A DNA stretch of 64,000 nt from Chiloscyllium plagiosum (lineage: Eukaryota): contig NC_057760.1 of NCBI RefSeq assembly GCF_004010195.1, positions 2,146,343 to 2,210,342 on the forward strand, read 5' to 3'. The notes below the pieces were generated by a model that was not told the origin of the DNA, did no database searches, and saw only the letters and a list, made by a program, of their open reading frames with translations. Position 1 is the stretch's first letter. Each line of letters begins with the position of its first letter. Below, piece after piece: positions 21,532 to 58,581 of the stretch. A program made the translations under genes and the position numbers.

Positions 21532-22652
21532 CTACGGAGGATTGGGGGGGGAGCACATGGGGAAAGACAGGCAGTACGCGTGGGAGAGAATGCGCGAGGG
21601 GAAGAGACCAACAGCATGGCAAGAGAGAGCGCGCGCAGCCACAGAGGTGTGGGGAGTCCGAGGGAGTATGGAGACAGAGAGCGCGAGCATGGGAGGAGAG
21701 AGAGAGAGAGAGAGAGAGAGTGATAAGGAGAGAGAAGACAAAGTTAGACACATACAGAATCACTTTCCATTTACTGCCTTTTGCCCACTTCATAGAAGAA
21801 TTACAGAATTGTTATGGTGCATGAAGCCATTCAGGCCACCATGCCTGCACCAGCCTTTCAAATGAGCATCATTACCTAATGCCAATCTCCTGCTTTTGCC
21901 CCATCATCCTGCACACGACTTCTAACCAAATAACTGACCAGCGCCCCTCTGGAAAGTTTCACTTGAACCAGCCTCTACCACATTTCCAGGCGCTGCATTC
22001 CAGTAGCAACACCCAGGGTTTGTTTATTGGTTCAGTTAGCTGGACAGCTACTTTGCTACACACTGAGGTCAACGGCATGGGTTCGATTCCCACACCAGCA
22101 GCCAAAGTTACCATGAAGTTCGCACCATCTCAGTCTCCTCTGAGACATGGGGTTAAACCCAACACCAATCACCTCTCTGTCTGTTTGTCTAACGAGAGAG
22201 CAGCCCCATGTTCTGCTGGGAATGCAGCAACATTAGTCTCTTTCATTGTTGGACCACCTGCCCGCTGCCAAAAAGAGGTAGGGCCAGATTGAGGGTGGTA
22301 CCTGTGACCATAGCACACAAAAAATGCCCAAAAGGTGACTTGAACAGGACAGCTTTAATTCCCAGGACTGACAAAGGGACCTTACATTAAGTGACAGTGT
22401 GCAAATAGACTGAACAGTCCTTTGTTGATAGACAATGCTCCATTCCACCAACGATCTCAGTCTAACTCCCAACCCAGGATCCCAGCAGTCGCTTTTTTGA
22501 AACTATTAGTGAAATCCAAGAACCAACATAAAAGGTAAACAGCCTCCCCCAGCCCCCGTAAATAGGGAGCACTTAAAAATGCTCAAAGCAAACTGAAGAT
22601 CAGATCAACCATGAAACAGCCGCTGGGGTTAGAAAAGGCACTACCAACTTAC

Positions 22653-22797
22653 CCACTGTTTTCTTTTTGTCCATCCCTTTGCCCACGCAGTTGAGTGCAG
22701 CCGTGACCACGGTCTGCTCTGAGAAGCCCAGTACCCTCTTCACTGTCTTCTCCACCCATGGTTTCAGTTCATCCAGATCACGTTTGGACAGTGACAT
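22653..22797 (-). CDS. PRPF3: PRPF3 first coding exon (PWI domain N-term, [48 protein letters not shown])
   Basis: Translation is recognisably vertebrate Prp3 N-terminus; ATG at 22797; donor G|GTAAG at 22653/22652; upstream acceptor cacag at 22809-22810 implies an earlier non-coding exon. Confidence 0.97.
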
Positions 22798-23189
22798 CTC
22801 TACTTAGGCTGTGTGGAGAGGGGGAGAGAGAAACAGAGCGAGCGTCAGGGCCACAAATTCAATCACCACAACCTACAAACTTGGAAAGGACGACTCCATC
22901 TCTGTCACACGCTTCAATCGGAGAATTTAAACCTCAGCCCGGAGACCTGAGTGACCATAACCCAGGGAGTTTGTACATTGTCACAGCATCACCTACTTTT
23001 TCATTTTAACATTGTGGTGCTTCCACAAGGGCACCCAATTCTCCTCAAAACAATAACATTTCCCAGTGTCTCATCCATTTAAAAAAAAAGCAAAGCATCT
23101 TTTCCCACCACATAGTCATGCACCTACAGTTACCTTGTCCAGGCTTACTGCGTTGTCCCCACAGCTTCATTTCCTACTTAGTTTCACGC

Positions 23190-25002
23190 AAAGTCAGAGC
23201 TGCACAACACGGAAAACAGACCATTCGGTCCAACTCAGCCAAGCTGACCAGATATCCTAAATAAATCTAGTCCCATTTGCCAGCATTTGGCTCACATCCC
23301 TCTAAACCCTTCCTATTCATGTCCCCATCCAGATGCCTTTTAAATGTTGTAATCGTACCAGCCTCCACCACTTCCTCTTGCAGCTCATTCCATCTACACA
23401 CACACACACCACCTTTCCTACTCTGGGGGAAAGACCTTGGCCATTCACCCCACCCATGCCCCTCATGATTCTATACATTTCTGTAAGGTGACCCCTCAGC
23501 TTCTGATGCTCCAGGAAAATAACCCCAGTCTATTCAACTTCTGTCTATAGGTCAAACCCTCCAAACCTGGCAACATGCTTGTAAATTTTTTTATGAATCT
23601 TTTCAAGTTTCACAACAGCCTTTCTATAGCAGGGAAATCATAATTGCCCGCTGTATTCCAAAAGTGGCTGAACCATTGTCGTGTACAGCCTCAATATGAC
23701 CTCTCAACTCCTATACTCAATGTACTGATCTATAACAGCAAGCATACCAAATGCCTTCTTCATTAATCTACCTACAGCTCCACTTTCAAGGAGCTATGAA
23801 CCTGCACGCCAAGGTCTCTATGTTCAGCAACACTCCCCAGGACCTTACCTTGAAGCATACAAGTACTGACCTGATTTGCCTTTACAAAATGCACCTTACA
23901 TTTATCTAAATTAAACTCAATCTGCCATTCCTTGGCCCATCTGATTAAGATCCTGTTGTACTCTGAAGTCACTCTCTTCACTGTCCACTATACCACCAAT
24001 TCTGAACCAAAATATATCACACTTAGGCACCTGTCGTGAAGACGGACTATAAATATTCAAATCACAGCATTACCAACTTGAAACTGACCAGTTCCAAACT
24101 GACTGTGTTTCCTGTCTTTTATTCAATCTTTTACCTAGCTGTCACTTTATCAGTGCTACATCCATGCTTCTGTATTAACCCCAATTAGTCATAGATAGAG
24201 TCATAGAGATGTACAGCATGGAAACAGACCCTTCAGTCCAACCTGTCCATGCCGACCAGATATCCCAACCCAATCTAGTCCCACCTGCCAGCACCCGGCC
24301 CATATCCCTCCAAACCCTTCTTATTCATATACCCATCCGAATGCCTCTTAAATGTTGCAATTGTACCAGCCTCCACCACTTCCTCTGGCAGCTCATTCCA
24401 TACACGTACCACCCTCTGCATGAAAAGTTGCCCTGTTGGTCTCATATCTTTCCCCTCTCACCCTAAACCTATGCCCTCTAGTTCTGGACTCCCCGACCCC
24501 AGGTAAAAGACTTTGCCTATTTATCCTATCCATGCCCCTCATAATTTTGTAAACCACTATAAGGTCACCCCTCAGCCTCCGACGCTCCAGGGAAAACAGC
24601 CCCAGCCTGTTCAGCCTCCCTATAGCTCAAATCCTCCAACCCTGGCAACATCCTTGTAAATCTTTTCTGAACCCCTTCAAGTTTCACAACATCTTTCCGA
24701 TAGGAAGGAGGCCAAAACTGCACGCAATATTCCAACAGTGGCCTAACCAATTGTCCTATACAGCCGCAACATGACCTCCCAACTCCTGTACTCAGTACTC
24801 TGACCAATAAAGGAAAGCATACCAAACACCGCTTTCACTATCCTATCCACGAGCGACTCCACTTTCAAGAAGCTATGAAACTGCACTCCAAGGTCTCTTT
24901 GTTCAGCAACACTCTCTAGGATCTTACCATTAAGTGTATATGTCCTGCTAAGATTTGCTTTCCCAAAATGCAGCACCTCGCATTTATCTGAATTAAACTC
25001 CA
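23190..25002 (-). mobile_element. Two tandem CR1 (HER1-type) LINE 3' fragments in PRPF3 intron 1
   Basis: WQIEFNLDKCKV / VRPLLEYCVQFW / QKRFTRMLPGL peptides; tails at ~23195 and ~24190. Confidence 0.85.
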
Positions 25003-25649
25003 TAAAATTCTATGCATCCTGCTTTAGAGTAATGGCCACATATGTGGCACTTTTATCAAATACTTTTTAAAAATCCAAAAACCCAAGACTTTCTTTACTC
25101 AGCCTAGAAGTAAACACTGGTGCATCTTTGTGCGCACATTAGAGAAGTGAACTTGAATCTAGCCTCCCAAGTCAGCACCCAAACTCTTTCCACTTGCCAT
25201 AGCTGACACACACAAAAACCTTTGCTTGACGTCTCTGCCATTTCCTTGCTCCCCACATTTACTTTCAGCAACTGATTCCATTTTACATATTTACAGAAGC
25301 CGGTTTTCATTTTTTCTAGATTTATGCATGCAATTTCCTCCACCAATCTTTTCTGTCCTTTGCTGAATTTTAAAATCCACCCAAGTCTCAACTTGATACA
25401 TTTCATTTAATCTAAATCAAACCTCACAACATCACATGGTTGGACTGTTTATCCTGTTTCATAGTTATTCCACAATACAGGTGGCTTTGGAGAAAAGTGC
25501 AGAATGCTACCTGGGTTAGAAAGACACAGGTTTGAGGAGAGGAAAGGCGGTGGGGAGGGAGGTTGGGGGGGTGACAGCAGGTGAGATGTGTGACAGGGTG
25601 AGGGGAGTTGACTGCAGGGCAAAAGTGGGGTGAGGGGCAAAAGGCAGGT

Positions 25650-26518
25650 NNNNNNNNNNNNNNNNNNNNNNNNNNNNNNNNNNNNNNNNNNNNNNNNNNN
25701 NNNNNNNNNNNNNNNNNNNNNNNNNNNNNNNNNNNNNNNNNNNNNNNNNNNNNNNNNNNNNNNNNNNNNNNNNNNNNNNNNNNNNNNNNNNNNNNNNNNN
25801 NNNNNNNNNNNNNNNNNNNNNNNNNNNNNNNNNNNNNNNNNNNNNNNNNNNNNNNNNNNNNNNNNNNNNNNNNNNNNNNNNNNNNNNNNNNNNNNNNNNN
25901 NNNNNNNNNNNNNNNNNNNNNNNNNNNNNNNNNNNNNNNNNNNNNNNNNNNNNNNNNNNNNNNNNNNNNNNNNNNNNNNNNNNNNNNNNNNNNNNNNNNN
26001 NNNNNNNNNNNNNNNNNNNNNNNNNNNNNNNNNNNNNNNNNNNNNNNNNNNNNNNNNNNNNNNNNNNNNNNNNNNNNNNNNNNNNNNNNNNNNNNNNNNN
26101 NNNNNNNNNNNNNNNNNNNNNNNNNNNNNNNNNNNNNNNNNNNNNNNNNNNNNNNNNNNNNNNNNNNNNNNNNNNNNNNNNNNNNNNNNNNNNNNNNNNN
26201 NNNNNNNNNNNNNNNNNNNNNNNNNNNNNNNNNNNNNNNNNNNNNNNNNNNNNNNNNNNNNNNNNNNNNNNNNNNNNNNNNNNNNNNNNNNNNNNNNNNN
26301 NNNNNNNNNNNNNNNNNNNNNNNNNNNNNNNNNNNNNNNNNNNNNNNNNNNNNNNNNNNNNNNNNNNNNNNNNNNNNNNNNNNNNNNNNNNNNNNNNNNN
26401 NNNNNNNNNNNNNNNNNNNNNNNNNNNNNNNNNNNNNNNNNNNNNNNNNNNNNNNNNNNNNNNNNNNNNNNNNNNNNNNNNNNNNNNNNNNNNNNNNNNN
26501 NNNNNNNNNNNNNNNNNN
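25650..26518. other. Assembly gap (N); others at 4353-4794, 19735-20083, 40522-41021
   Basis: Runs of N; this one likely hides PRPF3 exon 1/TSS. Confidence 0.99.
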
Positions 26519-26660
26519 GGGCTAGGGGGCGGGGCCGTGACCAGGGGGGGGCTAGGGGCGGGGCCAGGGGGCGGGGCCAGGGGCGGGGCCGTGGCCGGGG
26601 GGGCGGGGTTAGGGTGGCGACGCCCCCGTCGTCCTCCTGACCGCGGGAAGGCGCCAAAGG
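26519..26660. promoter_or_regulatory. GC-box (Sp/KLF) cluster / CpG-rich promoter, probably of PRPF3
   Basis: Multiple GGGGCGGGGC/GGGGCGGGGT boxes next to the N-gap upstream of the first coding exon; E2F-like GCGGGAA at 26643 and 26701. Confidence 0.7.
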
Positions 26661-26667
26661 ATCGCCC

Positions 26668-27921
26668 CGAACTTTCCAGACGCTTCTAGAACTTTCCAAA
26701 GCGGGAAGATCTGCTTTACTTTCGACAAACCCACAGCCACGATTATTTAAAAGTAGTTGGACGGTTTAAAAGGACTTTTTTCTCTCTCATAATGGTTCCA
26801 GAACACTCCACACGCCCCGTTGGATGATGTTCTAGAACATTCCAGAAAGGGATCCAGCCTTTACAGAGAAAACAGACAGAAAGGAACAGAGAAAAAAAAA
26901 TCTTTCTCCACGAAAAAAAAATTCCCAGGGAAGGGATGGGAATGTTACGTTAAATTATTTCAGAACTGGATCCGGAGGGGAAACGTTCTGGTGTGTTCTA
27001 GAAGTTTCCAAAGTTAAAAATCACACAGCACCAGGTTATAGTCCGAGAGGTTTATTTGGAAGCACTAGCTTTCGCAGCGCTGCTCCTCCACTCTATGACT
27101 CTATAAATCGGAATTCCGAGTGGAAACTGGCTCGATTTGGTCGACAGAACATTCTGGAATATTCCAGGCAAAGATCCAGAACTCTCGAAGTCCAGTTCCA
27201 GGGAAATATACAGACCGTTCTAGAATATTCCAGGGGGCAGCATCCGAAACTCAGAGTGATAAGGTCCAAATCATTCCAGATTATTTCCAGGGAAAGATCC
27301 GGAACTCTCGAAGATTGTTTCCAGGGAAATAAAAGAATGTTCTAGAATACTCAGAGGAACATCCGAAACTCAAAGAGATAAGGTCTGCATCATTCCAGAA
27401 TATTCTGGGGAACATCCAAAACTCAAGGAGTACGTTCCAGGGAAAGGTCTGGACCGTTCTGGAATATTCCAGGGGAATACCCCGACCCCTACAAGATCCG
27501 TTTTCAGGGATGCATTAGAACATTCTGGAAAATGTCATAAATAGATCCAGGGAATATTCAAGATTATCCTAGAAAATTGCAATTAAATTGTACTTGAAAA
27601 TTGCAAGTTGGGGGAGAGGGGGGAGGTTCCCAGAGCTCTATAAGATAGATTCCAGGGAAGATCTAGAACGTTCCAGAAAATTCCAGAGCTTTGCCGCAGA
27701 TTTGGCGATTGCCAAAAAAAAAACAGTCCAGGCACTCAAGGAAATGTCCAGACGTGATGGGATTTGACAAATTGAAAAAGGAAAATATTCCAGAATTTCA
27801 CAGAGAAGGTGCATCAAAATTTTCAATTTTGAATCCAGGATTCATGAGGTTCCTTAAATTTGAATAGATTTACAAATGGGTTTCCTGGGAGGGAACTAGG
27901 AAGTTCTGAAAATTCCTGAAA
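26668..27921. promoter_or_regulatory. Dense cluster of heat-shock elements (HSF-binding nGAAn inverted repeats)
   Basis: At least 11 perfect HSEs of 3 or more units, read directly (coordinates in findings). Confidence 0.75.
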
Positions 27922-28532
27922 TCTCACACTTGCAGAACAAAACAGAATTTCATCGGGGATTTCAACCTACCCTAGGATGTTCCTGATAAAATTGGAAATT
28001 TTCAGATCCTTCCCAATATAGGAATTTGCTTTCTTTCCTTTCTCCTTTGTAGATTTCATATCTGCTGCATCGTCTGCTGAAAATTCCAGGATTTGTAATT
28101 TAAATACCCAAAACTGAGACTTACTGTCCACGAGGCCATCCTACATCCAGTAGGAATGCTCTATCACTTCCCTGTGGGAGTAATGTTAAGGAGAATTGAG
28201 TGGCTGAATTTGCGACATTTTTAGTAAGTGCCACCTCAAAGTCAATGGCCGAGCCAAGATCCTAAGAATTTATTCATCGAAAATTTCAGAATTCAAATTG
28301 ATCGTATATGCAGATCAGTCACAATCTCAGTAAATGTCAGAACAGACTTGACGATCTTAGTCTGTTCCAGTTGTTTTGCCTCACTTGGGTAGCGTGCTGG
28401 AAATCGAGCCCCACTATTTCTGGGGTCAGCACAAAAATTAAAGATTTTATGGAAGTACCCGGGATTCCAGTTTACCTGACTTTCACACCCGGGTTGACAG
28501 AAAGCACAGGCCAGGTTTCTGCATTTATTTCA

Positions 28533-28749
28533 CAGTTAAAAATCACACAACACCAGGTTATAGTCCAACAGGTTTAATTGGAAGCACTAGCTTTCGGAGC
28601 GCTCTCCTTCATCAGATGGCGCAACCACCTGATGAAGGAGCAGCGCTCCGAAAGCTAGTGCTTCCAATTAAACCTGTTGGACTATAACCTGGTGTTGTGT
28701 GATTTTTAACTTTGTACACCCCAGTCCAACACCAACGTCTGCAAATCAT
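28533..28749. mobile_element. Palindromic short element with hammerhead-like cores (family B)
   Basis: Long inverted arms; TSD atttatttca at 28523-28532 and 28750-28759; relatives at 27011-27090, 32845-33063, 40330-40521. Confidence 0.75.
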
Positions 28750-29167
28750 ATTTATTTCATGTCGACATATAGAAATAGAATTAGGTGTTATTGTCACATG
28801 TACTGGAGGAGTTCCGTGAAAGGTTTCCAGTGTTGCCTCTCATGACACCATCTTAGATGCAAAGTACCTAGGTACAAATCGTTGATACAAAAAGAGGAAT
28901 AACTACTAAATAAAACTGATCCGATTACAAACCCCTTTAAACATACACAGAGGAAAGAAAAACATGGATGTTTTGGACGGAGGGAAAATTGAGAAAGCAG
29001 TTCAGTGCTTTCTGTTCACAGGGTCTGTTGAGACGGTTCTTGTGCTGATCAGAAAGCTGCTTCTCAATCTTCCTTCACCGGAGGTTTTCATTGATTTGAA
29101 GGAGGCTGGTTCATACTTTAAAATGTCTCTGACTCTTAAAAGTCACACCTTACAGCACTGCTAAAAG

Positions 29168-29436
29168 ACAGCACGGTACCTCAGTGGTTAGCACTGTTTC
29201 CCTCATAGTGCCAGGGACCCAGGTTCGATTCCAGCCTTGGGTGACTGTGTGAAATTTGCACATTCTCCCTGTGTCTGCATGGGTTTCCTCCCACAGTCCA
29301 AAGATGTGCAGGTTAGGGTGGATTACCCAGGGAAATGCAGGGATAGAGTATGGGGACGGGTCTGGGTTGGATGCTCTTCAAAGATTCTATGTGGACTTGA
29401 TGGGCCAAATGGCCTGCTCCCACACTATAGGGTTTC
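29168..29436 (+). mobile_element. HE1-type V-SINE
   Basis: tRNA head (cagtggttagcactg...ggttcgattcca), V-domain, CR1-type tail. Confidence 0.8.
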
Positions 29437-29949
29437 TTGAAATGAATCTCATCAAATACATAAACGTTTTTTTGGTTTATTCTGAAACATGGATAAATTG
29501 GTGGTATAAGCCTCTCTCGTAAAAACAAATCTGTAGGGTTAAAGAGGCTTTTGATGCAGAGAACACAAAAAGCTCCTGAGCTGGTGGTGATAAATGGCTT
29601 CTCCCCATTCTCGTTCACAACCCCCAAGCAGTTCAGCTGCTTGAGAACCTATCACATAGTTGTTGTCAGTTGAAGGCCTTTGTCATTGATAACTGGACAA
29701 TAGTCCACAGACCTGTTGCCCGACTGAATCTTCATTTGTACTCACCCTTGCCTGCACTGTGTCTGCATCTTCTCCAACTACTGTTTGAAGCAGCAGCTGT
29801 GTAAACAGTACTTCCAATGAGTGTCAAGTTGCTTGCTTTCAAAGAACGTGCAGTAGTTCCTCAGCAATCCTTGGTTTTTAAAACAGATTGTTTCCTGTTT
29901 CAGTCCACATTTAAAAGTACAGAATAATGAAAAGACGTACATTATTCTG

Positions 29950-31515
29950 TGTAATAGGCTTGAGGGGCTGAATGGCTTTCTCGTGTTTGTGTAGCAGACT
30001 GAAGGAGGGGCTGAATGGACTCTTTCTGTAACGAACTGAATGGTCTCCTGTTCTAATGTAATCGGTTCATACAGGCTGAATGACTCCTTGTGTAGCAGGC
30101 TCGAGTAGGGCTAAAATGTCTCCTCCTGTTCCTGTATGGCAGGCTGAAGAGAGGCTGAATGGCCTACTCTTGTTCCTGTGTAAGAAGTTCAAAGAGGGGA
30201 CTGAATGGGCTTCCTATTCCTGCACAACCGGTTTGATAAGGAACTGAACAATCTCCTCATTTTCCTGTGTCAAAGGCTCAAGGTCGCTGAATGAGCCTCC
30301 TCCTGTTCCTGTGTAACAAGGTTGAGAATGGGTTATGTTCCTAGGTAACAAACCTGAGAGGCTGAATGGCCCTTCTCCTATTCCTGTGTAACATACTGTG
30401 AGAAGGGGCTGAATGGCCTTTTTCAGTTACAATGTAGCAATCACTGATGGAGTTGAATGGCCTCTTCCTGTCCCTGTTTCTGTGCAACAGCCTGAAGGGT
30501 TTCAGTACACTCTTTCTGATCACATATAAGAGATTCAAGAAGGGCTGAATGGCTTCCTCTTGATCTTGTACAATGAGGCTGAATGTGCTCATCTTTATGT
30601 GTTGAAAAATGTGTTGCTGGAAAAGCGCAGCAGATCAGGCGGCATCAAAGGAGCAGGAGAATCGACGTTTCGGGCATAAGCTCTGAAGAAGGGCTTATGC
30701 CCGAAACGTCGATTCTCCTGCTCCTTTGATGCTGCCTGACCTGCTGCGCTTTTCCAGCAACACATTTTTCAGCTCTGATCTCCAGCATCTGCAGTCCTCA
30801 CTTTCATCTTTATGTGTAGCAGGCTCAAGTAATGAGTGGCCTTTTTCTCTTTTATCATTCATACATTGCTGGCTGGCCCAGCATTTATTAGAGCCACAGA
30901 GATAAGCAGAACTGAAGCTTGGTCCAACTCCTCCATGCTGACCAGTTATCCTAAATTAATCTAGTCCCATTTGCCAGCATTTGGCCCACATCCCTCTAAA
31001 CCCTTCCTGTTCATATACCAATCCAGATGCCTTTTAAATGTTTTAGTTGTGCCAGCTACCACCTCTTCCTCTGGCAGCTCATTCCATACACACCTCTGTG
31101 TAACAAAAGTGCCCTTTTAAATGTTACCCCTCTCAACTTAAACCTATGCCCCTCTAGTTTTGGACTCCACTACCCTTGGCTATTCACCCTGTCGCTACTT
31201 GCCATGTTGAAGGTGATGGTAAGCTGCCTTCTTTAACCACTGCAATCCTTGATTAACAGGTTCAAAGGGACAGAATGGCCTTCTGCAGGTTTTTGTATAA
31301 CAAAGGGCCTCCTTCTCTTCTGTGAACCAAACTCAAGGGGGCCACTTGTTCTCGTGAGACAAGTTTGAGAGGCTGAATGGGCTCCTCCTGTTCTTTATGT
31401 AACGCACTCAAAGGGCCTGGCTGGCTTCCTTTTGATCCTGTGCAACATTTGAAGAGTTGAATGGGCCTTCTTCTTATCCTGTGTGACATCCTTAAGGAGG
31501 CGAATGGCCTCCTGT
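29950..31515 (+). repeat. Degenerate ~45-bp tandem array (gaggggctgaatggcctcctcctgttcctgtgtaacaggct), interrupted by insertions
   Basis: ggctgaatggc / ttcctgtgta recur many times. Confidence 0.75.
30603..30803. mobile_element. Palindromic Penelope-like short element (family A)
   Basis: ~75-bp near-perfect inverted arms; TSD tcatctttatgtgt at 30589-30602 and 30804-30817. Confidence 0.8.
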
Positions 31516-34224
31516 GTTAGACCCAGAGAGAAGAACAAAGAGATGTCCTGAACATTTCAGTACCAGGATTATTGTGACTTCTAAATGTAACAGAACATAC
31601 AACCAGTCGATTGTGAATATGGGTTAGAAAGCAGAGACAAACAAAATTGAATATTGTGTTCCAGATTTATTGAAACTGTCTTAGAAATCATGAATTATCC
31701 AGACTAAAGTCCCCGGTTTTACTGATTTATCTTTAAACATTTACTGTGTTTTTTTTATTTGATTGGATATATTGTCAAATGTACCCAGGTACAGTGAAAA
31801 TTTTTGTTTTTCATGCAGTACAGGCAAATCATGCAAAGGTCACAACGTGATTGAACAAGAGCAAGGAATACAAAGGTATGGCTGCTAAGAAGGTGAATTG
31901 AGGTTTAAAAGTGCAGAATAATTGTAAAAAATGTGAGAATAAGATCTGCTGTGAGAGCCCACAAAGGGTCGGCCAGTGTCAGTGAATATTGAAGCAGAAG
32001 TAAATTGTTATCTGAGACCATTGCTGATCTCATGTCTCCCACACTGTCTAGAAATCAATCTTGGACTTGATCAGAGATTAATCAGCTAGCTAGGAAACTT
32101 GAGAGGGTTCAGAAAAGATTTACGAGGATATTGCCAGGGTTGGAGGGTGTGGAGGGATATAGGGAGAGGCTGCATAGGCTGAGGCTATTTTCCCTGGAGC
32201 TTCGGAGGCTGAGGGGTGACCTTAGAGAGGTTTATAAAATCACGGGAGGCATTGATAGGGTAAATAGTCAAGGTCTAGATTAGAATGATGCAGGTCAGGC
32301 AGCATCCAAGGAGAAGGAAAATCGACTTTTCGGGCAAAAGCCCTTCCTGATGAAGCATCACTCTAATCTCGACTCTGATCTCCAGCATCTGCAGTCCTCA
32401 CCTTTGCCTAAATAGTCAAGATCTTTTCCCTGGGGTGGAGGAGTCTAGAACGAGAGGGCATAGGTTTAGGGTGAGAGGGAGAAGATTTAAAAGCGACCTA
32501 AAGGGCAACATTTTCATGTAGAGGGTGGTGCATGACTGGAACAAGCTGCCAAGGAAGTAATGGAGGCTGGTATAATGACAACATTTTAAAGGCATCTGGA
32601 TGGGTATATGAATAGGAAAGGTTTAGAGGGATGTGAACTAATGCTGGTAAATGGGACAAGATTTCTTTAGGATATCTGTTCAGCATGGATGAGTTGGACC
32701 GAAGGTTATGTTACACGCTGGAGAGTGAAAGAAGTCCTAGTGAAAGTGAAAGAAATCCAAGCCTATCCAGCCTCTCCCAAACCACCCTCCATTCCCAGCA
32801 ACATCCTGGTAGATCTTCTAAACCCTCTCTAGCTTAATAACTTTGTGGAGGTGCCAGTGTTGGACTGGGGTGGACAAAGGTAAAATCAGACAACACCAGG
32901 TTATAGTCTAACAGGTTTATTTGGAAGCACTAGCTTTCAGAGTGCTGCTCCTTCATCAGGTGGCTGATCCTGCCCCACTAGCTACCTGATGAAGGAGCAG
33001 CACTCCAAAAGCTTGTACTTGCAAGTAAACCTGTTGGACTATAACCTGGTGTTGTGTGATTTTTAGCATAATAGTAGTCTTCCTATAACAGGGCAACCAG
33101 AACTGGAGACAGTACTTGAGGAGACGCCTCACCAATATCCGGTACAACCTCAACATGTCTCCCCAACTCCTATACTCAAAAGTCTGAGCAATTAAGGCAA
33201 TCATGCTAAATGCCTTTTAACCATGAACTTTTACAAGACAGAGCAGATGGCACAAACCTTTCCCTACTTGTGAAAGTGTCAAGAAAGAGACAACACTGAT
33301 TGAAAGTAATTCTCAAAAGAAGCTAAAACAGTATAAAATTGCATCATGTAAGTAGTTTAAGGTCTGAAATGCACTGTTTGGAGGGCACGTTCAGTTGAAC
33401 ATTCAGAAGGGAAATTCAGCTGTTACCTCGTTACGATCCTGGACCAGAACATAACTTTTATGTTACAAACTTGCTAGGGACTAGTGGCTTTTATTTTCAA
33501 AGTAGTCAAAGTGTGTGATGTCTGGGCACATAAACCAAGAGAATAAAGCCACAAGATTCCACTATGTTGAACAAATAATGAACTTTATTATACATTAGAA
33601 CTGTAATATGTTCTACAATATACGCACAATTCATATTTAACACCCAGAATTAACATGATAAATATGACAATAGACTGTGCCTGAACACTGCACAGTGCAA
33701 ATCAAATAGCAAATGTAATCAAAGCAGATCTCACAGATTTCTCACCCAGATACTAAAGACATGATGGTTCATCAAATCCAGTTTTCTAAGAGATTACAAT
33801 TCTTTTGCTAAGCTGTCCCTCTCACAAGTCGCTGTGTTGTGGACTGTCTCAACGACTGCTCCTGTTCTGGTTGATCACCTTCCTTTCCTAGACCTGAGCT
33901 CCCCCGGACTCCGAAATTGCAGGTCAGCACTCACTCGCAAGCATAACTCCAGCCCTCCACCAATAGTTTGAATCAGTCTTATCCCTGAGCTCTACTACCC
34001 CTTTCCACCATGCCCAGCCCAAGTTCCAATCTTGCTCAGCTATATTCAAGCAAATACTGCTTGAAACCCTACTCTCTCAGGTATGCTGAACCCTTAATTC
34101 TCCTGAGTCCTTCAAGGCTATCCCCCAACGCAAAGACAATGACCTTCCCACTTTCTCAGCTCTGCAGAAAATTAGCTATTTCTTTCTGAAGTATATTCAA
34201 TTACTTGCCTTTCACACATTTCTA

Positions 34225-34770
34225 AGGATGTTGAGATTGTACAGGGCGTTGGTGAGGCCTCCTCTGGAGTACTATGTCCAGTTCTGGTCTCCCTGTTACA
34301 GGAAGGATGTCATTAAGCTGGAGAGGATTCAGAAGAGAGTTACCAGGATGTTGTCTGGACTGGAGGGTTTGAATGATAAGGTGAGGCTGGATAGGCTGAG
34401 ACTTTTATCACTGGAGGGTAGGAGGTTCAGGGACAACCTTATAGAAGTTCATAACATCATGAGGGGCATGGATAAGGTGAATGACAGGCATCTTTTCCCT
34501 AGGGTTGGAATTTCAAGATTGGAGGCATATTTTTAAGGTGAGAGGAGAAAGATTTTAAAAAGGCATGAGGCACAATTTTTTTACACAGAGTGGTTTGTGT
34601 GTGGCATGAGTAAGGGTTGGATGTGGGAACAGTTACAACATTTGGATAAGTACATGAATAAAAAATGTTTGCACAGACATGGGCCAAGTGCAGGCAGGGT
34701 GGGACTAGTTTAGTTTGGGAACATGGTCAGCATGGACTGGTTGGGACAAAGGGTCTGTTTCCATGCTGTA
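34225..34770 (+). mobile_element. CR1 LINE 3' fragment
   Basis: LYRALVRPPLEYYVQFWSPCYRKDVIKLERIQKRVTRML peptide. Confidence 0.85.
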
Positions 34771-36879
34771 TGGAGAATCCTGCAGGTTCACCACCTGCTG
34801 AGTGAAGAAATGTTTTCTCATCTGTGTCCCAAATTGTTTCCTCTGTATCTTGAGATCCTTATTCTAGACTCTAGCAGCCCCCCCCGTCCCCGTCCCCGTC
34901 CACGAAACAAGGAAAACATCATCCCTGCATTAAGACTGCCCTTCCTTGCCTGGATTTGATATGTTTCAATGAAACCCTCTGTCATTATTCTAAACTCTGG
35001 TAAATACAGGTCCGGTCAACCCAATCTCTCATCGTATGACAACCCTATTCCAAAAGACTCCTCTCATCCTAAAATAACTGTGTCCTTTGGACTCCTCTTC
35101 CATGACCCACAGACTGTTCTGTGTGACCTATCATAAACCTTGCAATAATTCCCTCCCCGATCGCTGAACAGAATTGAGTGTTTCTAACATTTTGAGATAA
35201 TGGAACTGAGTGTACTCTGGAGGTTACGTTCTCACAGTGTGCTGGAAAAGAAGTTTTAACAACATGTCTTTTCCTTCAGCAATATTAAACTTTACTTGTT
35301 AAATAAAACACAGAAATGTGGGCAGGGTAGGGAAGTGCAGCTGTAGTGCAAATGGTTCCTGTCTTGCTAACACCGGTACTTACAAACGAGATCATGTACT
35401 GTTAATTTTAAAAATCCTATGAGTGAAACGAATGGACATATTATACTGCAGTGTTCCAATTTGCAGAAACATTGACTTACAAACGTACTCAGGATTGGAA
35501 CCCATTTGTAACCCAGGGACCTCCTGTATGTGGATGTTGGTGGACACCCGTATGGTCCCCTTAAGACCACAAGGTGTAGTAGCAGAAGCAGCCCGTTGAG
35601 TCTGCCCCTCCATTCATGGAGATCGTGGCTGATCTGATAATCCTCAACTCCACTCTACAGCATTTTCCTTATAATCTTTGATCCCTGTACTGGGTAAAAG
35701 TCTGAAATAACATTAGGAAGCTGGAGATCCGAAACATACAATTAAACGTCTTTGATCTTGATCTCACTCTTTGTGCACCTTCTCTGCAGCCATTTCACAC
35801 TATCCTTCACTTTGTTCTATTACCCTAATACACTTTGTAAAGTATGATCTGCCTGTACTGCACACAAAACAAAACTTTCACTGTACCCAGGTACATGTGA
35901 CAACAATGAATCAAATCAAATCAAATCAAACCTTGACCTTGAATATACTTAACAACCCAGCCTCTGCAGTCATCTCTAAGCTGAAGAATTCCACAAATTC
36001 ACTGTCTTCTGAGAAAATGAATTTCTCCTCATCTGTCCTAGAAAGGCACACCCTTATTCTGAGAGTATGCTTTCTGGACCTAGACTATCCCACAAGTGAA
36101 AGCAAGCTTTCTGCATCTACCCGATCAAATCTGATAAGAATCTTGTTTGATTCAATAAAGTCTCCTCTCATCTTCTAAACATCGGTAAGTACAGGCCAAA
36201 CCCATCATCCACAAATGCCATTAGTGTCTGCAGCTTGATGACCCTCAACTCCAAGAGTTGGTGCACTGACGTCTGAGCTTCAGATGCTGTGAAGCATCAG
36301 GGAAGGGGGGGGGAAGTTAGCTGAACACTTTGTTCCAAGGGGATCATTACACCTCGTGGATCAGGGGTCACGCCCAAGAGGGAGGCAGAAACGGAGATCC
36401 CAAAGGCAGTCGAGGAGGAACCTCAGCCCTTGAGGAATTGTTCATCAGGTTTGAGGTTCCTACAACCTGCGTGGGTAATAACAGTGGCCAAAGGGAGAAT
36501 GGGTAGACTGACAATGGCACCAAGCCATTCATGTTGGGGAGATTGTTCCTGCAGTGGAAGAACATTGCGTATAGGAGTTGGGAGGTCATGTTGCGGCTGT
36601 ACAAGACATTGCTGAGGCTACGTTTCCTACGTTCTAAGGAGAGACTGGATAGAATGGGACATTTTTCTCTACAGCATTGTAGGTTGAAGGGGTGACTTTA
36701 TAGGCTGTGAGGGGGGTGTCCTCAAAGCATTTCCTCTGCCCTCAGAACTGGTCATTACATGAAGTGGGAGCTTACATGTTGGAGGTGAAATATTAGCCTG
36801 GATAAAAGGATTGGCTAACAAACAAGAAATAGAAAGTTGGGATGAGTAGGTGATTTTCAGATTGGAAAACTGTAACTAG

Positions 36880-37595
36880 TGGAATATTGTGTTCAGTTCC
36901 GGTCTTCCTGCTTTGGAAATATGTTGTTAAATTTGAAAGTGTGCAGAAAAGATTTACAAGAATGTTGCCAGGGTTGGAGGGTTTGAGCGAGAGAGACAGA
37001 GACTGAACAGGCTGAGGCAGTTTTCCCTGGAGAGTCAGAGGCTGAGGAGTGACCTTATACAGGTTTATAAAATCATGAGGGGCATGGATAGGGTGAAGAG
37101 CAGAGGTCTTTTACCCAGGGTAAGGGAGTCCAAAACAAGAGGGCATGGGTTTAAGGTGAGAGGGCAGAAAATATAAAAGGGACCTGAGGGGCAACGTTTT
37201 CACAGAGGGTGGTGCATGTATGGAATAAGCTGCCAGGGGAAGTGATGGAGGCTGGTACAATTACAACATTTAAAAGGCTCATTAAGCAAGATTAAATTAG
37301 GATATCTGATCAGCATAGATGAGTTGGAGATGGAAATGTGTTGCTGGAAAAGCGCAGCAGGTCAGGCAGCATCTAGGGAACAGGAGAATCGATGTTTCGG
37401 GCATTAGCCCTTCTTCAGGCTAATGCCCGAAACGTCGATTCTCCTGTTCCCTAGATGCTGCCTGACCTGCTGCGCTTTTCCAGCAACACATTTCCATCTC
37501 TGATCTCCAGCATCTGCAGACCTCACTTTCTCCTCATAGATGAGTTGGACCAAAGGGTCTGTTTCTGTGCTGTACGTCTCTATGACTCTCTATGA
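36880..37595 (+). mobile_element. CR1 LINE 3' fragment with nested family-A palindromic element (37329-37534)
   Basis: 15-bp TSD catagatgagttgga at 37314-37328 and 37535-37549. Confidence 0.8.
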
Positions 37596-40500
37596 GTGCC
37601 ACAGGGATCTGTAAGGGGGCCACAACCTCTTACAGTCTACACAGCAAGATCCCATAAGAATGCATGCTCGGTCAGCTTTTCTTTCGTGGTATTAATGGGA
37701 ATGCTGGCCAGGGTGTAGGAAGCACTCCACCCCACCACCACCACTCTTCAGTAGTTGTCTGGGGTATTTACCCGAGAGGGCTCCTGGCTTGATGCCTGCA
37801 GTCTGGATGATGAAACCAACCATACTATCACCACAATTGCTAATGATATAAAGATAGGTAGGAAATCAAGCCATGAGGAGGATACAAGAGGTTTGTTAAG
37901 GCAAGTGAACGAAAATTGGACAAATGGAGTATGATGTGGGAGAATGTGAGGCTGCCCACTTTGGCAGGGAGAAAGGAAGAGCAGAATATTGTTTAAATAG
38001 AGAGAAAGTAGAGCATGTTACAGTACAAAAGAACCTGGGTTTCCTCATACACAAATCACAAGGCAGAAGGAATATTGGCTTTTATTGCAAGGGGCGGAGC
38101 TCAAAACAAAGTCTTGCTACAACCGCACAGGCTATTGGTGAGATTCTGCATGGAGTACTGTTACAGCTTCACCCTCCTTGCTTAAGAAAATACTCTCTCA
38201 CATTGGAAGAAGATTCACTCAGCTGATTGCTGGGCTGAAGGGTTTGTCACATGAAGAAAGGTTGAGCAGGTTGTCCCTCCCTGCATTACAGTTAAGAAGA
38301 ATGGAAGTTAATCTTATTGAAATGGAAGATTCTGAGGCAGAGGACTTGGTGCTGAGGGATTTTTCTCATGAACGACGAGGACTCTAAACACCAGAGGGCA
38401 TCATTTGAAAAGAAGAGGTCACCTACTAAAGGAGGATATTTTTTCTCTCTCTTTGTTAGCCGTTAGAATTCTCTCACCCAGCGGAGGTTAGGTCACTAAA
38501 TATATTCAGAGCTGAATTAGATTGAGTTTTGATTGATGAGGGTGTAAACATTGATGTGCTGCAAACAGGAAAGAGAATTTGAAGCCACAAACAGACCAGT
38601 CACGACCTTACCAAATGATGTAGCAGGTTGGAGAGGCTGAGTGACCCACTCCCACTTATATTCCCTACATCCTTATGTGTTTTGGCCAGGCACTGTCATG
38701 TGATCAGATAATACAAGCTGTTACTAGTGAAAAAAGTTAAGCACCCAACCCTTTGGCCTGTGCATGGGGTGGTTTATCAAAAATCCTTCACGTCTCACAC
38801 GGACAGAATGCAGACAAATTCTTTTGGGCAATTTGCTGGTAGGTTGGCCGTTTTTAAAAGCCCATAGCCAACATTTCCGTCCACTTAAACGTAAGCAAAC
38901 GGTCAGTAAATGGTGCGTAATTGTTACACTTGGCTGTTGGAGTGTTAGCAGATGGAACAAACATTTCAGACACAGCAAAATCCCATAAGAATGCATGCTC
39001 GGTCAGCTTTTCTTTCGTGGTATTAATGGGAATGCTGGCCAGGGTGTAGGAAGCACTCCACTCCACCACCACCGCTCTTCAGTAGTTGTCTGGGGTATTT
39101 ACCCGAGAGGGCTCCTGGTTTGATGCCTCCTCTGACGGACAGTGTACCAACAGTGCGGCACTCTCTCGGTATGGGCACTGCCAGTGTCAATCCAGCCAGA
39201 GGAAGGAGCTCAAACCTTCTCATGAAAACTGAGTCATCCCAGTTGGCACCTAGCCTCTCTCAAAGCAAAGGCGTATCATCAGTAAAGCATTCCGTAAATA
39301 ACCTTTTAACTGATCCTGCAAAAAAGGACACAAAGCAACCCAAGACTTACCACGTAGCTAAAAGGTACATGCCTTATCCCCCAGTCAGAACACTGCCTTC
39401 AGTATCATGCTGTACTCAGATCTGACTGAACACTAACTACAAACACACCGCACCCATCCAAAAAGAAATGATTAGTTAAATCTGAAGATGAGTTCAAGAA
39501 TTTATTGGAATTGACAAAATCTCAAGGATGTGATTGGCGTCTTTCACTCTGCACCTGTCTGTCCCATTGTGTGTGTCTCTGTCTCTGTATGTGTCTCTCT
39601 CTGTTCCCTGTATGTGTGTCTCTCTCTATCCCTCTGTCGATATGTCTGTCTTTCACTTGATCTGTATGTCTTTGTGTGTGTGTGTGTGTGTTGGTGTGTG
39701 TGAGTGTGTCTCTCTCGCTCTCTCTGTGCCTCTCCCCTCTCATCATTCTTTCAGACTCACCACCTCGTGCCATCAGTCTCTGTCCTTGCGCTACTCTGAA
39801 GATATTCAGACATCACGAAAATCTGAGGACTCTGTGTAGCTGCGATGAACAGCTAATCATATCACTCAGGTATCCTTGTGAGAGGGACAGACACCTGTGA
39901 AAGTGACCCCATTCAGCATCCCTTAAATGTATTAAAATTTATCCAAAGCAGAAACTACAAACCAGAGAATCAAGACATTTAATATTTCACTTTATATATT
40001 TGAATCGCTTGAAGACATCACCAACTGAACCACAAGGTTCCCCATGCCACTTAGAAATTATACCTAGCGGCCACTGTAATGTTGGACAGATAAAGTGTAT
40101 TGAAGCAGGACTCAGTGTCACGGGAGCAGCAATTCAGATGGTTTTTCCGAGTAGCATTTTGACTGCCACAGATGCGACTAAAGAAAGACCGTTTCTGTGG
40201 AAACAAGATGAGACAGTAAGGAGTCTCATTTGAAGTTTTACAGTTCTTTGTAACTTACTGTGATAATCTTTCCATCACGGCCATGATCAGGAATCACAGC
40301 CATGAGTCAGCTTCTCCTTTTGGGAATGATTTGGAGATGCCAGTGTTGGACTGGGGTGTACAAAGTTAAAAATCACACAACACCAGGTTATGGTCCAACT
40401 GGTTTAATTGGAAGCACACTAGCTTTCGGAGCGACGCTGATGATGAAGGAGCGACGCTCCGAAAGCTGGTGTGCTTCCAATTAAACCTGTTGGACTATAA

Positions 40501-42154
40501 CTTGGTGTTGTGTGATCTTTANNNNNNNNNNNNNNNNNNNNNNNNNNNNNNNNNNNNNNNNNNNNNNNNNNNNNNNNNNNNNNNNNNNNNNNNNNNNNNN
40601 NNNNNNNNNNNNNNNNNNNNNNNNNNNNNNNNNNNNNNNNNNNNNNNNNNNNNNNNNNNNNNNNNNNNNNNNNNNNNNNNNNNNNNNNNNNNNNNNNNNN
40701 NNNNNNNNNNNNNNNNNNNNNNNNNNNNNNNNNNNNNNNNNNNNNNNNNNNNNNNNNNNNNNNNNNNNNNNNNNNNNNNNNNNNNNNNNNNNNNNNNNNN
40801 NNNNNNNNNNNNNNNNNNNNNNNNNNNNNNNNNNNNNNNNNNNNNNNNNNNNNNNNNNNNNNNNNNNNNNNNNNNNNNNNNNNNNNNNNNNNNNNNNNNN
40901 NNNNNNNNNNNNNNNNNNNNNNNNNNNNNNNNNNNNNNNNNNNNNNNNNNNNNNNNNNNNNNNNNNNNNNNNNNNNNNNNNNNNNNNNNNNNNNNNNNNN
41001 NNNNNNNNNNNNNNNNNNNNNTGGTCATGGACAGTGCAGACCAGATGGACCCCAGCCCAGCTCCCTCACCCGTCTCCCCTGGGTCCGGGAGGTCGGTCTG
41101 GTCCCGACCGTCTGACCCAGGGTGCGGGGATATGCGTGCGCGCGCCCCCAACGCCAACACGTTACCTTCGACCCTTGCACGCCTTCCTGTCGCGCCGTCA
41201 CAGCGATGATGTCGGCTGTGGTCTCACAGGGCATCGCAGCTGAACCCGATCCAGTCCTCACTGGAATCACGTATGTGGACCTGCCTCCCAGCTGCACTGC
41301 GACCCCGTTTGACCCATCTCACCCCACTCCCAAAAAGGAGGGAGAAAGAAAGAGGGAACACACAAACAGCTACCTCCACGCTCCACCCTGCCTGGGGCAC
41401 TCTTGTTGTTGGGTCAGGCGCAGTCCTGGTCGAGTGAGACAGTAAAATGAAGGAAGGAGCAGAGTACTGGTGATTCAATACCAAACTTGCTCACCTCAGC
41501 TGTGGGGGCTTACCCACAGTGAAAGGTGAACGGTCTGGAAATATAAACTCCAAGGCTGTTAACCCATCGCCTGGGTTACTGAGGACCAATCAGCTCCACT
41601 CTGCCAGCCCCCTTCCTGTTTGGTCCTTCGGGCACAGAAAGGATGTATCACCAACAGTATTCCAGGATTAGTTCAGAAATGGGCTCAAGAAACCAAAGTG
41701 CCTTCTCCCCTGTGTGTGATTACTAAATACCCCATTCAATGTGTGATACAGGGTGCAGGGAAGGGGGGGGGGCTACAGGAACACAGGGGATTGGTCTTAC
41801 CCAGAGGCATCCTGCACTGGGCAGCTGCCAGGGTGAGATCGGGCAGACTCCATACGGCCTGGGAACGGGACTCAGTCCCTTCCAGGTCTGTGGGCTCTGT
41901 ACCAGACTGGGTAAACCACACCTCCCTCTCCAGTAAAACCCCCACGTCCCCCTCTCAGATTGTCACCCAGAAGGAGGGCTGAACTGCGAAAGAAGAGGTG
42001 GGGGGAGGGGGGGGGGTGGGAGATGACGACAATGAAACAAGGAGACTTGCTCTCCCCCTCTCGGGACCTTGCGCTCTCTGGCATTCACCCTGCCAGGCAC
42101 TATATAAATAAAAACATCCTTGTGAAAGTAAGCTTCCATCGACGTACTGGGCAC

Positions 42155-54418: not shown

Positions 54419-57400
54419 GAGAGAGAGAGAGAAAGAGGAGAGAGAAAGAGGAGAGAGAAAGAGGAGAGAGAAAGAGGAGAGAGAAAGAGGAGAGAGAAAG
54501 AGGAGAGAGAAAGAGGAGAGAGAAAGAGGAGAGAGAAAGAGGAGAGAGAAAGAGGAGAGAGAAAGAGGAGAGAGAAAGAGGAGAGAGAAAGAGGAGAGAG
54601 AAAGAGGAGAGAGAAAGAGGAGAGAGAAAGAGGAGAGAGAAAGAGGAGAGAGAAAGAGGAGAGAGAAAGAGGAGAGAGAAAGAGGAGAGAGAAAGAGGAG
54701 AGAGAAAGAGGAGAGAGAAAGAGGAGAGAGAAAGAGGAGAGAGAAAGAGGAGAGAGAAAGAGGAGAGAGAAAGAGGAGAGAGAAAGAGGAGAGAGAAAGA
54801 GGAGAGAGAAAGAGGAGAGAGAAAGAGGAGAGAGAAAGAGGAGAGAGAAAGAGGAGAGAGAAAGAGGAGAGAGAAAGAGGAGAGAGAAAGAGGAGAGAGA
54901 AAGAGGAGAGAGAAAGAGGAGAGAGAAAGAGGAGAGAGAAAGAGGAGAGAGAAAGAGGAGAGAGAAAGAGGAGAGAGAAAGAGGAGAGAGAAAGAGGAGA
55001 GAGAAAGAGGAGAGAGAAAGAGGAGAGAGAAAGAGGAGAGAGAAAGAGGAGAGAGAAAGAGGAGAGAGAAAGAGGAGAGAGAAAGAGGAGAGAGAAAGAG
55101 GAGAGAGAAAGAGGAGAGAGAAAGAGGAGAGAGAAAGAGGAGAGAGAAAGAGGAGAGAGAAAGAGGAGAGAGAAAGAGGAGAGAGAAAGAGGAGAGAGAA
55201 AGAGGAGAGAGAAAGAGGAGAGAGAAAGAGGAGAGAGAAAGAGGAGAGAGAAAGAGGAGAGAGAAAGAGGAGAGAGAAAGAGGAGAGAGAAAGAGGAGAG
55301 AGAAAGAGGAGAGAGAAAGAGGAGAGAGAAAGAGGAGAGAGAAAGAGGAGAGAGAAAGAGGAGAGAGAAAGAGGAGAGAGAAAGAGGAGAGAGAAAGAGG
55401 AGAGAGAAAGAGGAGAGAGAAAGAGGAGAGAGAAAGAGGAGAGAGAAAGAGGAGAGAGAAAGAGGAGAGAGAAAGAGGAGAGAGAAAGAGGAGAGAGAAA
55501 GAGGAGAGAGAAAGAGGAGAGAGAAAGAGGAGAGAGAAAGAGGAGAGAGAAAGAGGAGAGAGAAAGAGGAGAGAGAAAGAGGAGAGAGAAAGAGGAGAGA
55601 GAAAGAGGAGAGAGAAAGAGGAGAGAGAAAGAGGAGAGAGAAAGAGGAGAGAGAAAGAGGAGAGAGAAAGAGGAGAGAGAAAGAGGAGAGAGAAAGAGGA
55701 GAGAGAAAGAGGAGAGAGAAAGAGGAGAGAGAAAGAGGAGAGAGAAAGAGGAGAGAGAAAGAGGAGAGAGAAAGAGGAGAGAGAAAGAGGAGAGAGAAAG
55801 AGGAGAGAGAAAGAGGAGAGAGAAAGAGGAGAGAGAAAGAGGAGAGAGAAAGAGGAGAGAGAAAGAGGAGAGAGAAAGAGGAGAGAGAAAGAGGAGAGAG
55901 AAAGAGGAGAGAGAAAGAGGAGAGAGAAAGAGGAGAGAGAAAGAGGAGAGAGAAAGAGGAGAGAGAAAGAGGAGAGAGAAAGAGGAGAGAGAAAGAGGAG
56001 AGAGAAAGAGGAGAGAGAAAGAGGAGAGAGAAAGAGGAGAGAGAAAGAGGAGAGAGAAAGAGGAGAGAGAAAGAGGAGAGAGAAAGAGGAGAGAGAAAGA
56101 GGAGAGAGAAAGAGGAGAGAGAAAGAGGAGAGAGAAAGAGGAGAGAGAAAGAGGAGAGAGAAAGAGGAGAGAGAAAGAGGAGAGAGAAAGAGGAGAGAGA
56201 AAGAGGAGAGAGAAAGAGGAGAGAGAAAGAGGAGAGAGAAAGAGGAGAGAGAAAGAGGAGAGAGAAAGAGGAGAGAGAAAGAGGAGAGAGAAAGAGGAGA
56301 GAGAAAGAGGAGAGAGAAAGAGGAGAGAGAAAGAGGAGAGAGAAAGAGGAGAGAGAAAGAGGAGAGAGAAAGAGGAGAGAGAAAGAGGAGAGAGAAAGAG
56401 GAGAGAGAAAGAGGAGAGAGAAAGAGGAGAGAGAAAGAGGAGAGAGAAAGAGGAGAGAGAAAGAGGAGAGAGAAAGAGGAGAGAGAAAGAGGAGAGAGAA
56501 AGAGGAGAGAGAAAGAGGAGAGAGAAAGAGGAGAGAGAAAGAGGAGAGAGAAAGAGGAGAGAGAAAGAGGAGAGAGAAAGAGGAGAGAGAAAGAGGAGAG
56601 AGAAAGAGGAGAGAGAAAGAGGAGAGAGAAAGAGGAGAGAGAAAGAGGAGAGAGAAAGAGGAGAGAGAAAGAGGAGAGAGAAAGAGGAGAGAGAAAGAGG
56701 AGAGAGAAAGAGGAGAGAGAAAGAGGAGAGAGAAAGAGGAGAGAGAAAGAGGAGAGAGAAAGAGGAGAGAGAAAGAGGAGAGAGAAAGAGGAGAGAGAAA
56801 GAGGAGAGAGAAAGAGGAGAGAGAAAGAGGAGAGAGAAAGAGGAGAGAGAAAGAGGAGAGAGAAAGAGGAGAGAGAAAGAGGAGAGAGAAAGAGGAGAGA
56901 GAAAGAGGAGAGAGAAAGAGGAGAGAGAAAGAGGAGAGAGAAAGAGGAGAGAGAAAGAGGAGAGAGAAAGAGGAGAGAGAAAGAGGAGAGAGAAAGAGGA
57001 GAGAGAAAGAGGAGAGAGAAAGAGGAGAGAGAAAGAGGAGAGAGAAAGAGGAGAGAGAAAGAGGAGAGAGAAAGAGGAGAGAGAAAGAGGAGAGAGAAAG
57101 AGGAGAGAGAAAGAGGAGAGAGAAAGAGGAGAGAGAAAGAGGAGAGAGAAAGAGGAGAGAGAAAGAGGAGAGAGAAAGAGGAGAGAGAAAGAGGAGAGAG
57201 AAAGAGGAGAGAGAAAGAGGAGAGAGAAAGAGGAGAGAGAAAGAGGAGAGAGAAAGAGGAGAGAGAAAGAGGAGAGAGAAAGAGGAGAGAGAAAGAGGAG
57301 AGAGAAAGAGGAGAGAGAAAGAGGAGAGAGAAAGAGGAGAGAGAAAGAGGAGAGAGAAAGAGGAGAGAGAAAGAGGAGAGAGAAAGAGGAGAGAGAAAGA

Positions 57401-58532: not shown

Positions 58533-58573
<41 letters not shown>

Positions 58574-58581
58574 AGAGAGAG
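54419..58581. repeat. Perfect 13-bp tandem repeat (GAGAGAGAAAGAG)n, ~316 copies, with (GA)n flanks
   Basis: Direct reading; no visible variant units. Confidence 0.95.

Follow-up and report, generated by a model that had tools for sequence, protein, structure and literature searches.

A dense array of heat-shock elements, with a decayed tandem repeat at its core, adjoins the predicted PRPF3 promoter of Chiloscyllium plagiosum

The gene nearest to the heat-shock element (HSE) array among those identified in this region is PRPF3. The window, meaning the whole 64,000-base stretch of Chiloscyllium plagiosum DNA that was analysed, carries this gene on the minus strand, and the features around it are collected in Table 1. 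A preliminary description of the same DNA had named the gene from its letters, and the name holds: exon 22654-22797 matches solved Prp3 chains in the PDB (phmmer, E=9.8e-25) as well as the PWI domain of Pfam. No GGT[AG]AG splice donor is present on the minus strand in 26519-29700, and the non-coding exon 1 of PRPF3 probably lies inside the 869-N assembly gap. The DNA at 26519-26720, 3.9 kb upstream of the first coding exon, has five GGGCGG boxes, a GC content of 0.72 and a CpG observed/expected ratio of 0.77, compared with 0.28 in the intron DNA at 22000-25600. The earlier placing of the array beside the promoter stands in so far as this GC-box and CpG-rich DNA adjoins the HSE block; the promoter itself is predicted, with the gap lying between it and the first coding exon.

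Table 1. Features of the array and its surroundings (positions in the window)
Feature	Position	Strand	Remarks
PRPF3 first coding exon	22653..22809	-	ATG at 22797; start of PWI domain; splice sites read in sequence
869-N assembly gap	25650..26518		probable location of the PRPF3 start site and its non-coding first exon
GC-box/CpG-rich stretch, predicted PRPF3 promoter	26519..26668		adjoins six-unit HSE
Candidate low-level divergent non-coding RNA	26612..28495	+	organism D contigs, stranded reads
Six-unit HSE, five units perfect	26669..26696		promoter-proximal; best site; 17/18 core letters, top score of the window
Two-unit HSE with imperfect third unit	26796..26808		perfect three-unit HSE in organism D through a difference at 26806
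Four-unit perfect HSE	26830..26847
Three-unit perfect HSE	26996..27008		abuts repeat insertion
High-copy short interspersed repeat fragment, 87 bp	27004..27090		inserted in array; itself free of HSEs
Only TATAWAW match in 26519-30500	27102..27108	+	possible core promoter of plus-strand RNA
Decayed tandem repeat	27134..27690		monomer about 53-66 bp, dimer period about 122 bp, recurring TTCCAGGGAA word
Three-unit perfect HSE, distal	27908..27920		imperfect sites carry on at 27995 and 28279

Open frames of at least 62 amino acids in 22900-42100 (98 of 101 scanned against Pfam) give four weak matches, all under the cut-off, and none to any family of heat-shock proteins. The possibility that hsp70 or MRPS21 is a neighbour was considered and rejected, as six-frame searches with short motifs give no convincing match and the scanned frames give none, in a coverage of the longer exons outside the gaps. 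A protein-coding repeat was likewise rejected: the open frames of the array have no Pfam match, and no ATG-started frame longer than 58 amino acids overlaps 26668-27921.

A probable ECM1 exon and a zinc-finger gene lie on the other side of the array from PRPF3. The probable last coding exon of ECM1 (40057-40195, minus strand, 12 kb from the array) has a stop at its end and a pyrimidine tract with a CAG acceptor before it; its Pfam match is weak (E=5e-4, 19.5 bits against a cut-off of 25) and reaches the end of the profile. Human ECM1 lies close to PRPF3. Next to this exon, 40522-41021 is exactly 500 N, unlike the remaining three gaps (442, 349 and 869), and is probably a scaffold join of undefined size in which most of ECM1 is lost from view. 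Whether the zinc-finger gene on its far side is a true neighbour is therefore doubtful. That gene is a multi-exon C2H2 gene on the minus strand (42161-62902), presumably ZNF687-like. One of its introns holds a 4.2-kb pure-purine array at 54420-58581 (13-bp unit, 320 copies, 99% identity), which is either genuine or a product of the assembly. The part of a human HSF1 data set that is available lists an HSF1 peak at the ZNF687 promoter, with no HSE noted there (PMC8709578). At the opposite end of the window, positions 1-600 are GC-rich, carry numerous GC boxes and hold a tandem repeat with a 40-bp unit (5.4 copies). They probably serve as promoter for the gene that lies downstream of PRPF3.

The array has the geometry expected of heat-shock factor (HSF) sites. 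An HSE consists of inverted nGAAn units, according to the sections available of PMC9226494. A regular-expression scan of the window finds 14 overlapping perfect three-unit matches, which make up 11 arrays, each of three or more inverted pentamers in 5-bp phase. All lie within 26684-27920 and none outside, so that the 11 arrays of the preliminary description were found again where it had placed them, together with its six in-phase promoter-proximal units and its remark that nothing comparable occurs elsewhere in the window. Six-unit registers with at least 14 of 18 core letters number 20, every one inside the array, and the best starts at 26669. Followed further in the 5' direction, the array at 27457-27469 covers six in-phase units over 27442-27469, of which four are perfect and two have one mismatch. 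A spacing of exactly 5 bases is the commonest both from GAA to TTC (15 pairs) and from TTC to GAA (14 pairs), with counts of 0-2 at adjacent spacings, and the STAT-type motif TTC-N3-GAA is absent from the array; both results point to HSF geometry. When 26640-27930 is shuffled with preservation of k-lets (k=1-5), the mean number of arrays is 0.01, 0.06, 0.24, 0.54 and 1.64, and none of 5,000 shuffles reaches 11, the maximum being 7. In the proximal part alone (26640-27008), the observed three arrays are reached in none of 6,000 shuffles.

The arrangement resembles canonical heat-shock promoters in its sites and differs from them in number and setting. In vertebrate heat-shock protein promoters the strongest HSE lies beside GC boxes, and there are typically few HSEs. 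The same perfect inverted arrays of three to six units are found here, again with the best site beside GC boxes, whereas there are eleven arrays in 1.25 kb, the nearest gene encodes a core splicing factor instead of a chaperone, and its heat induction is a prediction.

A different factor, or a different target, is an improbable explanation of the array. A STAT6- or EBF-type factor could act on the recurring TTCCAGGGAA word, since TTC-N4-GAA, which resembles STAT6 and EBF sites, has six copies in the array where the remaining window would predict 0.3. However, the 5-bp HSF phase dominates with 29 pairs, and the TTC-N4-GAA copies follow from a 2-bp phase break in the repeat. Alternatively, the array might serve a short gene concealed by the 869 N, where the sequence is missing, or a distant gene such as the one with the ECM1-like last exon. 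The gap must also accommodate PRPF3 exon 1, though, and offers little room if its estimated size is correct; the ECM1-like gene turns its 3' end to the array.

The core of the array is a decayed minisatellite with a unit of about 60 bp, and most units carry an HSE. Self-BLAST aligns 27134-27421 with 27258-27541 (71% over 295 bp, offset 124), and cutting by HSE position, with 27576-27658 excluded, yields eight units, 53-66 bp long, whose HSEs fall in register when the units are aligned. Perfect HSEs at 27147, 27218, 27335, 27393, 27457, 27518 and 27666 lie within the repeat. Tandem Repeats Finder reports nothing in 26609-39567 and so misses it. Since seven of the 11 arrays are inside the repeat, the HSE sites are not independent. 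The preliminary description had remarked that some copies arose by duplication; the duplication is real, and its extent was underrated. The three proximal arrays and the array at 27908 give no BLAST alignment to the repeat, and 26640-27003 has no self-match. An odd third unit, GAC, is common to the proximal six-unit site and to repeat units at 27203 and 27442, suggesting a common origin in which the flanks would have decayed and the cores been kept.

A second repeat is inserted in the array. The fragment at 27004-27090 has five more matches in the window (86-93%), and in the DNA of organism B, one of the organisms used for comparison, its summed contig depth is 2.0 million, against about 9.5 on the array. 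One strand of this short interspersed repeat has an AATAAA, both at 27036-27061 and in other genomic copies. Poly(A)-primed reads from the copies, in their hundreds, end 8-20 bases beyond it, and the family would appear to be a widespread source of polyadenylation sites. Short repeats also occur as near-perfect inverted pairs, at 28528-28719, 30616-30760, 32875-33065, 37340-37500 and 40361-40521. The pair at 28531-28714 has 73-nt arms that are 99% identical. Such pairs form long hairpins, and these account for sub-threshold microRNA matches.

The array is apparently single-copy and is found in related organisms. Four public sequencing runs, out of 24 listed, were compared with 26519-28520. For organism B, with about 64% of its DNA run read, a single long contig spans 27061-27623 and another spans 27628-28505, with depths of 9.5 and 7.8 and with 27 and 44 differences, and most of 26653-26987 has no cover. 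Organism D has four contigs over 26612-28495 at 95-96% identity, which reach into both flanks of the insertion, and organism C has three short pieces with more than 99% identity. No second copy of the array is present in the window. The preliminary description had allowed that the block might prove to be a high-copy dispersed repeat or satellite, or to be missing from related species. Neither is the case: array depth in organism B is that of a single copy (8-9.5), with the 87-bp insertion as the one high-copy part, and two other organisms have the array at about 95% identity. One contig per segment in B, and identities of about 95% in B and D, indicate a single-copy array older than the split from these organisms. 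The repeat copies are 71-78% alike, compared with about 95% between organisms, and so are much older than that split. A metagenome scan for orthologous upstream DNA of distant vertebrates gave two short partial matches among 360 candidates, which were set aside. At 27374, outside the HSE cores, the window has A where both reads of its own species, B and D have G; this is an allele or an assembly error.

An HSF-sequestering platform like the human SatIII stress bodies, as the preliminary description had proposed, is very improbable. The array shares with SatIII a tandem-repeat origin and HSF-type motifs. It is HSE-dense and possibly transcribed, and the RNA of 27095-27700 beats all 20 shuffles in fold score (z=-3.1). 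This fold is, however, expected from the palindromic HSE words in the repeat, and the proximal part scores only z=-0.65. SatIII is a pericentric satellite built of pentamers that can reach about 27 Mb, as given in the available text of a review (PMC9032817). In contrast, the element described here has about 0.55 kb of decayed units of about 60 bp at single-copy depth, in a 1.25-kb array at a promoter-like site, and its roughly 11-20 trimer sites would be too few to titrate nuclear HSF. The proposal thus finds no support.

Selection on the HSE letters is suggested, and the tests disagree. Perfect three-unit HSEs are retained in six of seven contiguous units, for which a neutral-decay model gives p of 0.002-0.04 at non-core identities of 0.70-0.80, taking the copies as independent and the ancestor as perfect at a locus that was picked for its HSE count. 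The HSE-anchored alignment matches the majority letter in 67 of 72 core cells, compared with 218 of 330 elsewhere; in its units 1-6 a second block scores equally high (0.94). The three proximal arrays, which shuffling does not reproduce, also speak for selection. Dimer alignments made without anchoring give 54 of 63 core matches and 209 of 285 non-core matches (0.86 vs 0.73), close to the prediction of neutral decay, and the cores do worse in one of the three pairs. Between species, one change falls in HSE cores among the 38 of 131 differences taken in (40 rows minus two in the insertion), against 4.0 expected (p=0.075). Organism D has gained a site, its perfect three-unit count rising from 3 to 4, and in organism B the core at 27230 is broken and the compared stretch falls from 6 to 5 matches.

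Neutral origin is a live rival because the core is a decayed minisatellite, although an unlikely one. The repeat unit would by chance have carried an HSE, and HSF may bind the array without a selected effect. The seven arrays within the repeat, the unanchored contrast, the non-significant test between species and the tolerated insertion all fit this reading. It sits less well with copies that are so diverged and yet mostly retain a perfect element, with four perfect arrays outside the alignable repeat, and with a best site that abuts GC boxes.

Clusters of this density are rare, are absent from human and mouse, and are not unique among vertebrates. Garrigues et al. (2019) described HSE clusters borne by Helitrons in Caenorhabditis (PMC6927752). 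The sections of that paper available state that high-density clusters are absent outside Helitrons, yet its own table lists vertebrate 1-kb bins with more than 10 HSEs: none in human or mouse, one in Xenopus, two in zebrafish, seven in lamprey, nine in mouse lemur and 13 in rabbit, with cartilaginous fish outside the survey (PMC6927752). The best 1 kb of the array has 13 overlapping matches (10 separate arrays) and so exceeds 10 per kb, in an approximate comparison, as the survey used fixed bins and a printed pattern unlike the canonical HSE whereas a sliding 1 kb was used here. The sporadic bins above 10 in several vertebrate genomes show that dense clusters arise and may be neutral. Like the Caenorhabditis clusters, this one is repeat-derived, dense and near a gene that does not encode a heat-shock protein, and may be a lineage-specific addition to the heat-shock regulon. 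It differs in being a decayed vertebrate minisatellite, apparently present once, and not a member of a dispersed Helitron family; the contigs of organism B, one to each segment in about 64% of its run, and the lack of a second copy in the window argue against a dispersed multi-copy transposon.

The cluster looks lineage-restricted, since human and mouse have no bins above 10 HSEs and mouse Prpf3 is not heat-induced in one data set. In the portion of that data set available, the log-ratios of Prpf3 after heat are -0.89, -0.26 and +0.31, and Prpf3 is absent among the ChIP rows listed (PMC3711851). PRPF3 has no HSF1 peak in the human list of 3,717 rows, which comes from oestrogen-treated and not heat-shocked cells; a PRPF3 peak in the accessible part of the same source was rejected as evidence, as it belongs to the oestrogen receptor (PMC8709578). 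The gene is also absent from 12 of the 13 supplementary files of a zebrafish Hsf1 study, and it was not found in the available supplement of a human HSF1 study, where gene names may not be given. No published description of the element was found in the literature covered, which excludes subscription journals and several supplements. The earlier idea of a lineage-specific HSF super-cluster survives in part: the cluster is extreme, and none so dense occurs in human or mouse; binding by HSF is predicted from the motifs.

Transcription across the array, on the plus strand, is suggested by a trace of reads. An RNA-type run of organism D, whose label is a guess and whose strand is undefined, gives four contigs whose depth declines with distance from the GC boxes (12.1, 8.0, 5.5 and 4.6). 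For the window's species, about 2% of a poly(A) single-cell run was read; three of 1,891 records fit fully, and 27122-27456 is covered at a depth of 1-2 by about three stranded reads, every one with the first mate on the minus strand. Poly-T loose ends at 27036-27048 lie just beyond a minus-strand AATAAA at 27056 in the inserted repeat. These ends put the first mate opposite to the RNA, so the reads at 27122-27456 would represent plus-strand RNA, divergent from PRPF3. A trace of this size fits ordinary upstream antisense transcription. Plus-strand AATAAA signals are present at 27328 and 28909, and contigs of RNA-type runs also cover DNA upstream of the TATAWAW match. A known structured RNA was ruled out, as Rfam has no match in the array; 22 sub-threshold matches lie elsewhere in 22000-42500. 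The supposition that Heat, a mouse lncRNA, or else C920021L13Rik might occupy the orthologous place was dropped. The divergent RNA of the preliminary description is thus seen as a trace, in about three stranded reads and in unstranded contigs of two RNA-type runs, and may be stress-inducible.

A heat-induced divergent RNA of the enhancer or long non-coding type as the output of HSF binding, with PRPF3 uninduced, is a somewhat unlikely reading. The uniformly plus-strand reads, the tiling contigs of D with their falling depth, three short contigs of C, the lone TATAWAW match and the AATAAA signals all speak for it. On the other hand, the contigs have no strand and may be DNA, the falling depth also fits PRPF3 transcripts initiated upstream, and three reads would be expected from the ordinary upstream antisense output of any CpG promoter. 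HSF1-driven enhancer RNAs and single-locus lncRNAs are documented in the available text of one review (PMC9032817), another covers the lncRNA Heat (PMC9065632, also available in part), and the mouse Prpf3 values fit an uninduced gene (PMC3711851). The array resembles such loci as NEAT1 and Heat in being HSE-rich non-coding DNA with signs of transcription; theirs is driven by HSF1, whereas here the RNA is only a candidate.

The preferred reading, to which we give a probability of about 0.4, is that the array is a repeat-born HSF enhancer that makes the predicted promoter heat-inducible, PRPF3 included. An old tandem repeat with an HSE-bearing unit would have expanded next to the predicted promoter and decayed since, leaving eleven perfect HSEs. 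After heat stress many HSF trimers would load on the array and raise transcription from the promoter, including that of PRPF3. The benefit would be a resupply of this U4/U6.U5 tri-snRNP subunit when heat impairs splicing. The motifs and their phase, the decayed repeat, the identity of the gene, the apparent single copy and the presence in related organisms are the observations on which this reading builds. Beyond these, it supposes that transcription starts within the gap, that the HSE letters are selected, that HSF occupies the array, that PRPF3 is induced and that this brings a benefit. In the few stranded reads the divergent RNA is visible and PRPF3 is not. Functionally the element would be of a known kind, an HSE enhancer, and its origin by repetition would resemble that of the Helitron-borne clusters.

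A bolder form of this enhancer reading is doubtful. It holds that a vertebrate lineage wired a core spliceosome gene into its heat-shock regulon, through a minisatellite-seeded cluster at the PRPF3 promoter whose letters are selected and through which heat strongly induces PRPF3 and so replenishes the tri-snRNP. This form would also rank the array among the densest HSE clusters of the genome, and its circuit is absent from the mouse data checked.

The array is instructive whichever way it is read. If it is neutral, it warns that decayed minisatellites, unseen by Tandem Repeats Finder, can yield striking motif clusters. If it is functional, it would be a vertebrate heat-shock target gained by local expansion of a tandem repeat, where the published model is that of Helitrons in nematodes. 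It would also tie HSF directly to a core tri-snRNP gene, and would offer a simple test of whether splicing withstands heat better when one of its factors is kept in supply.
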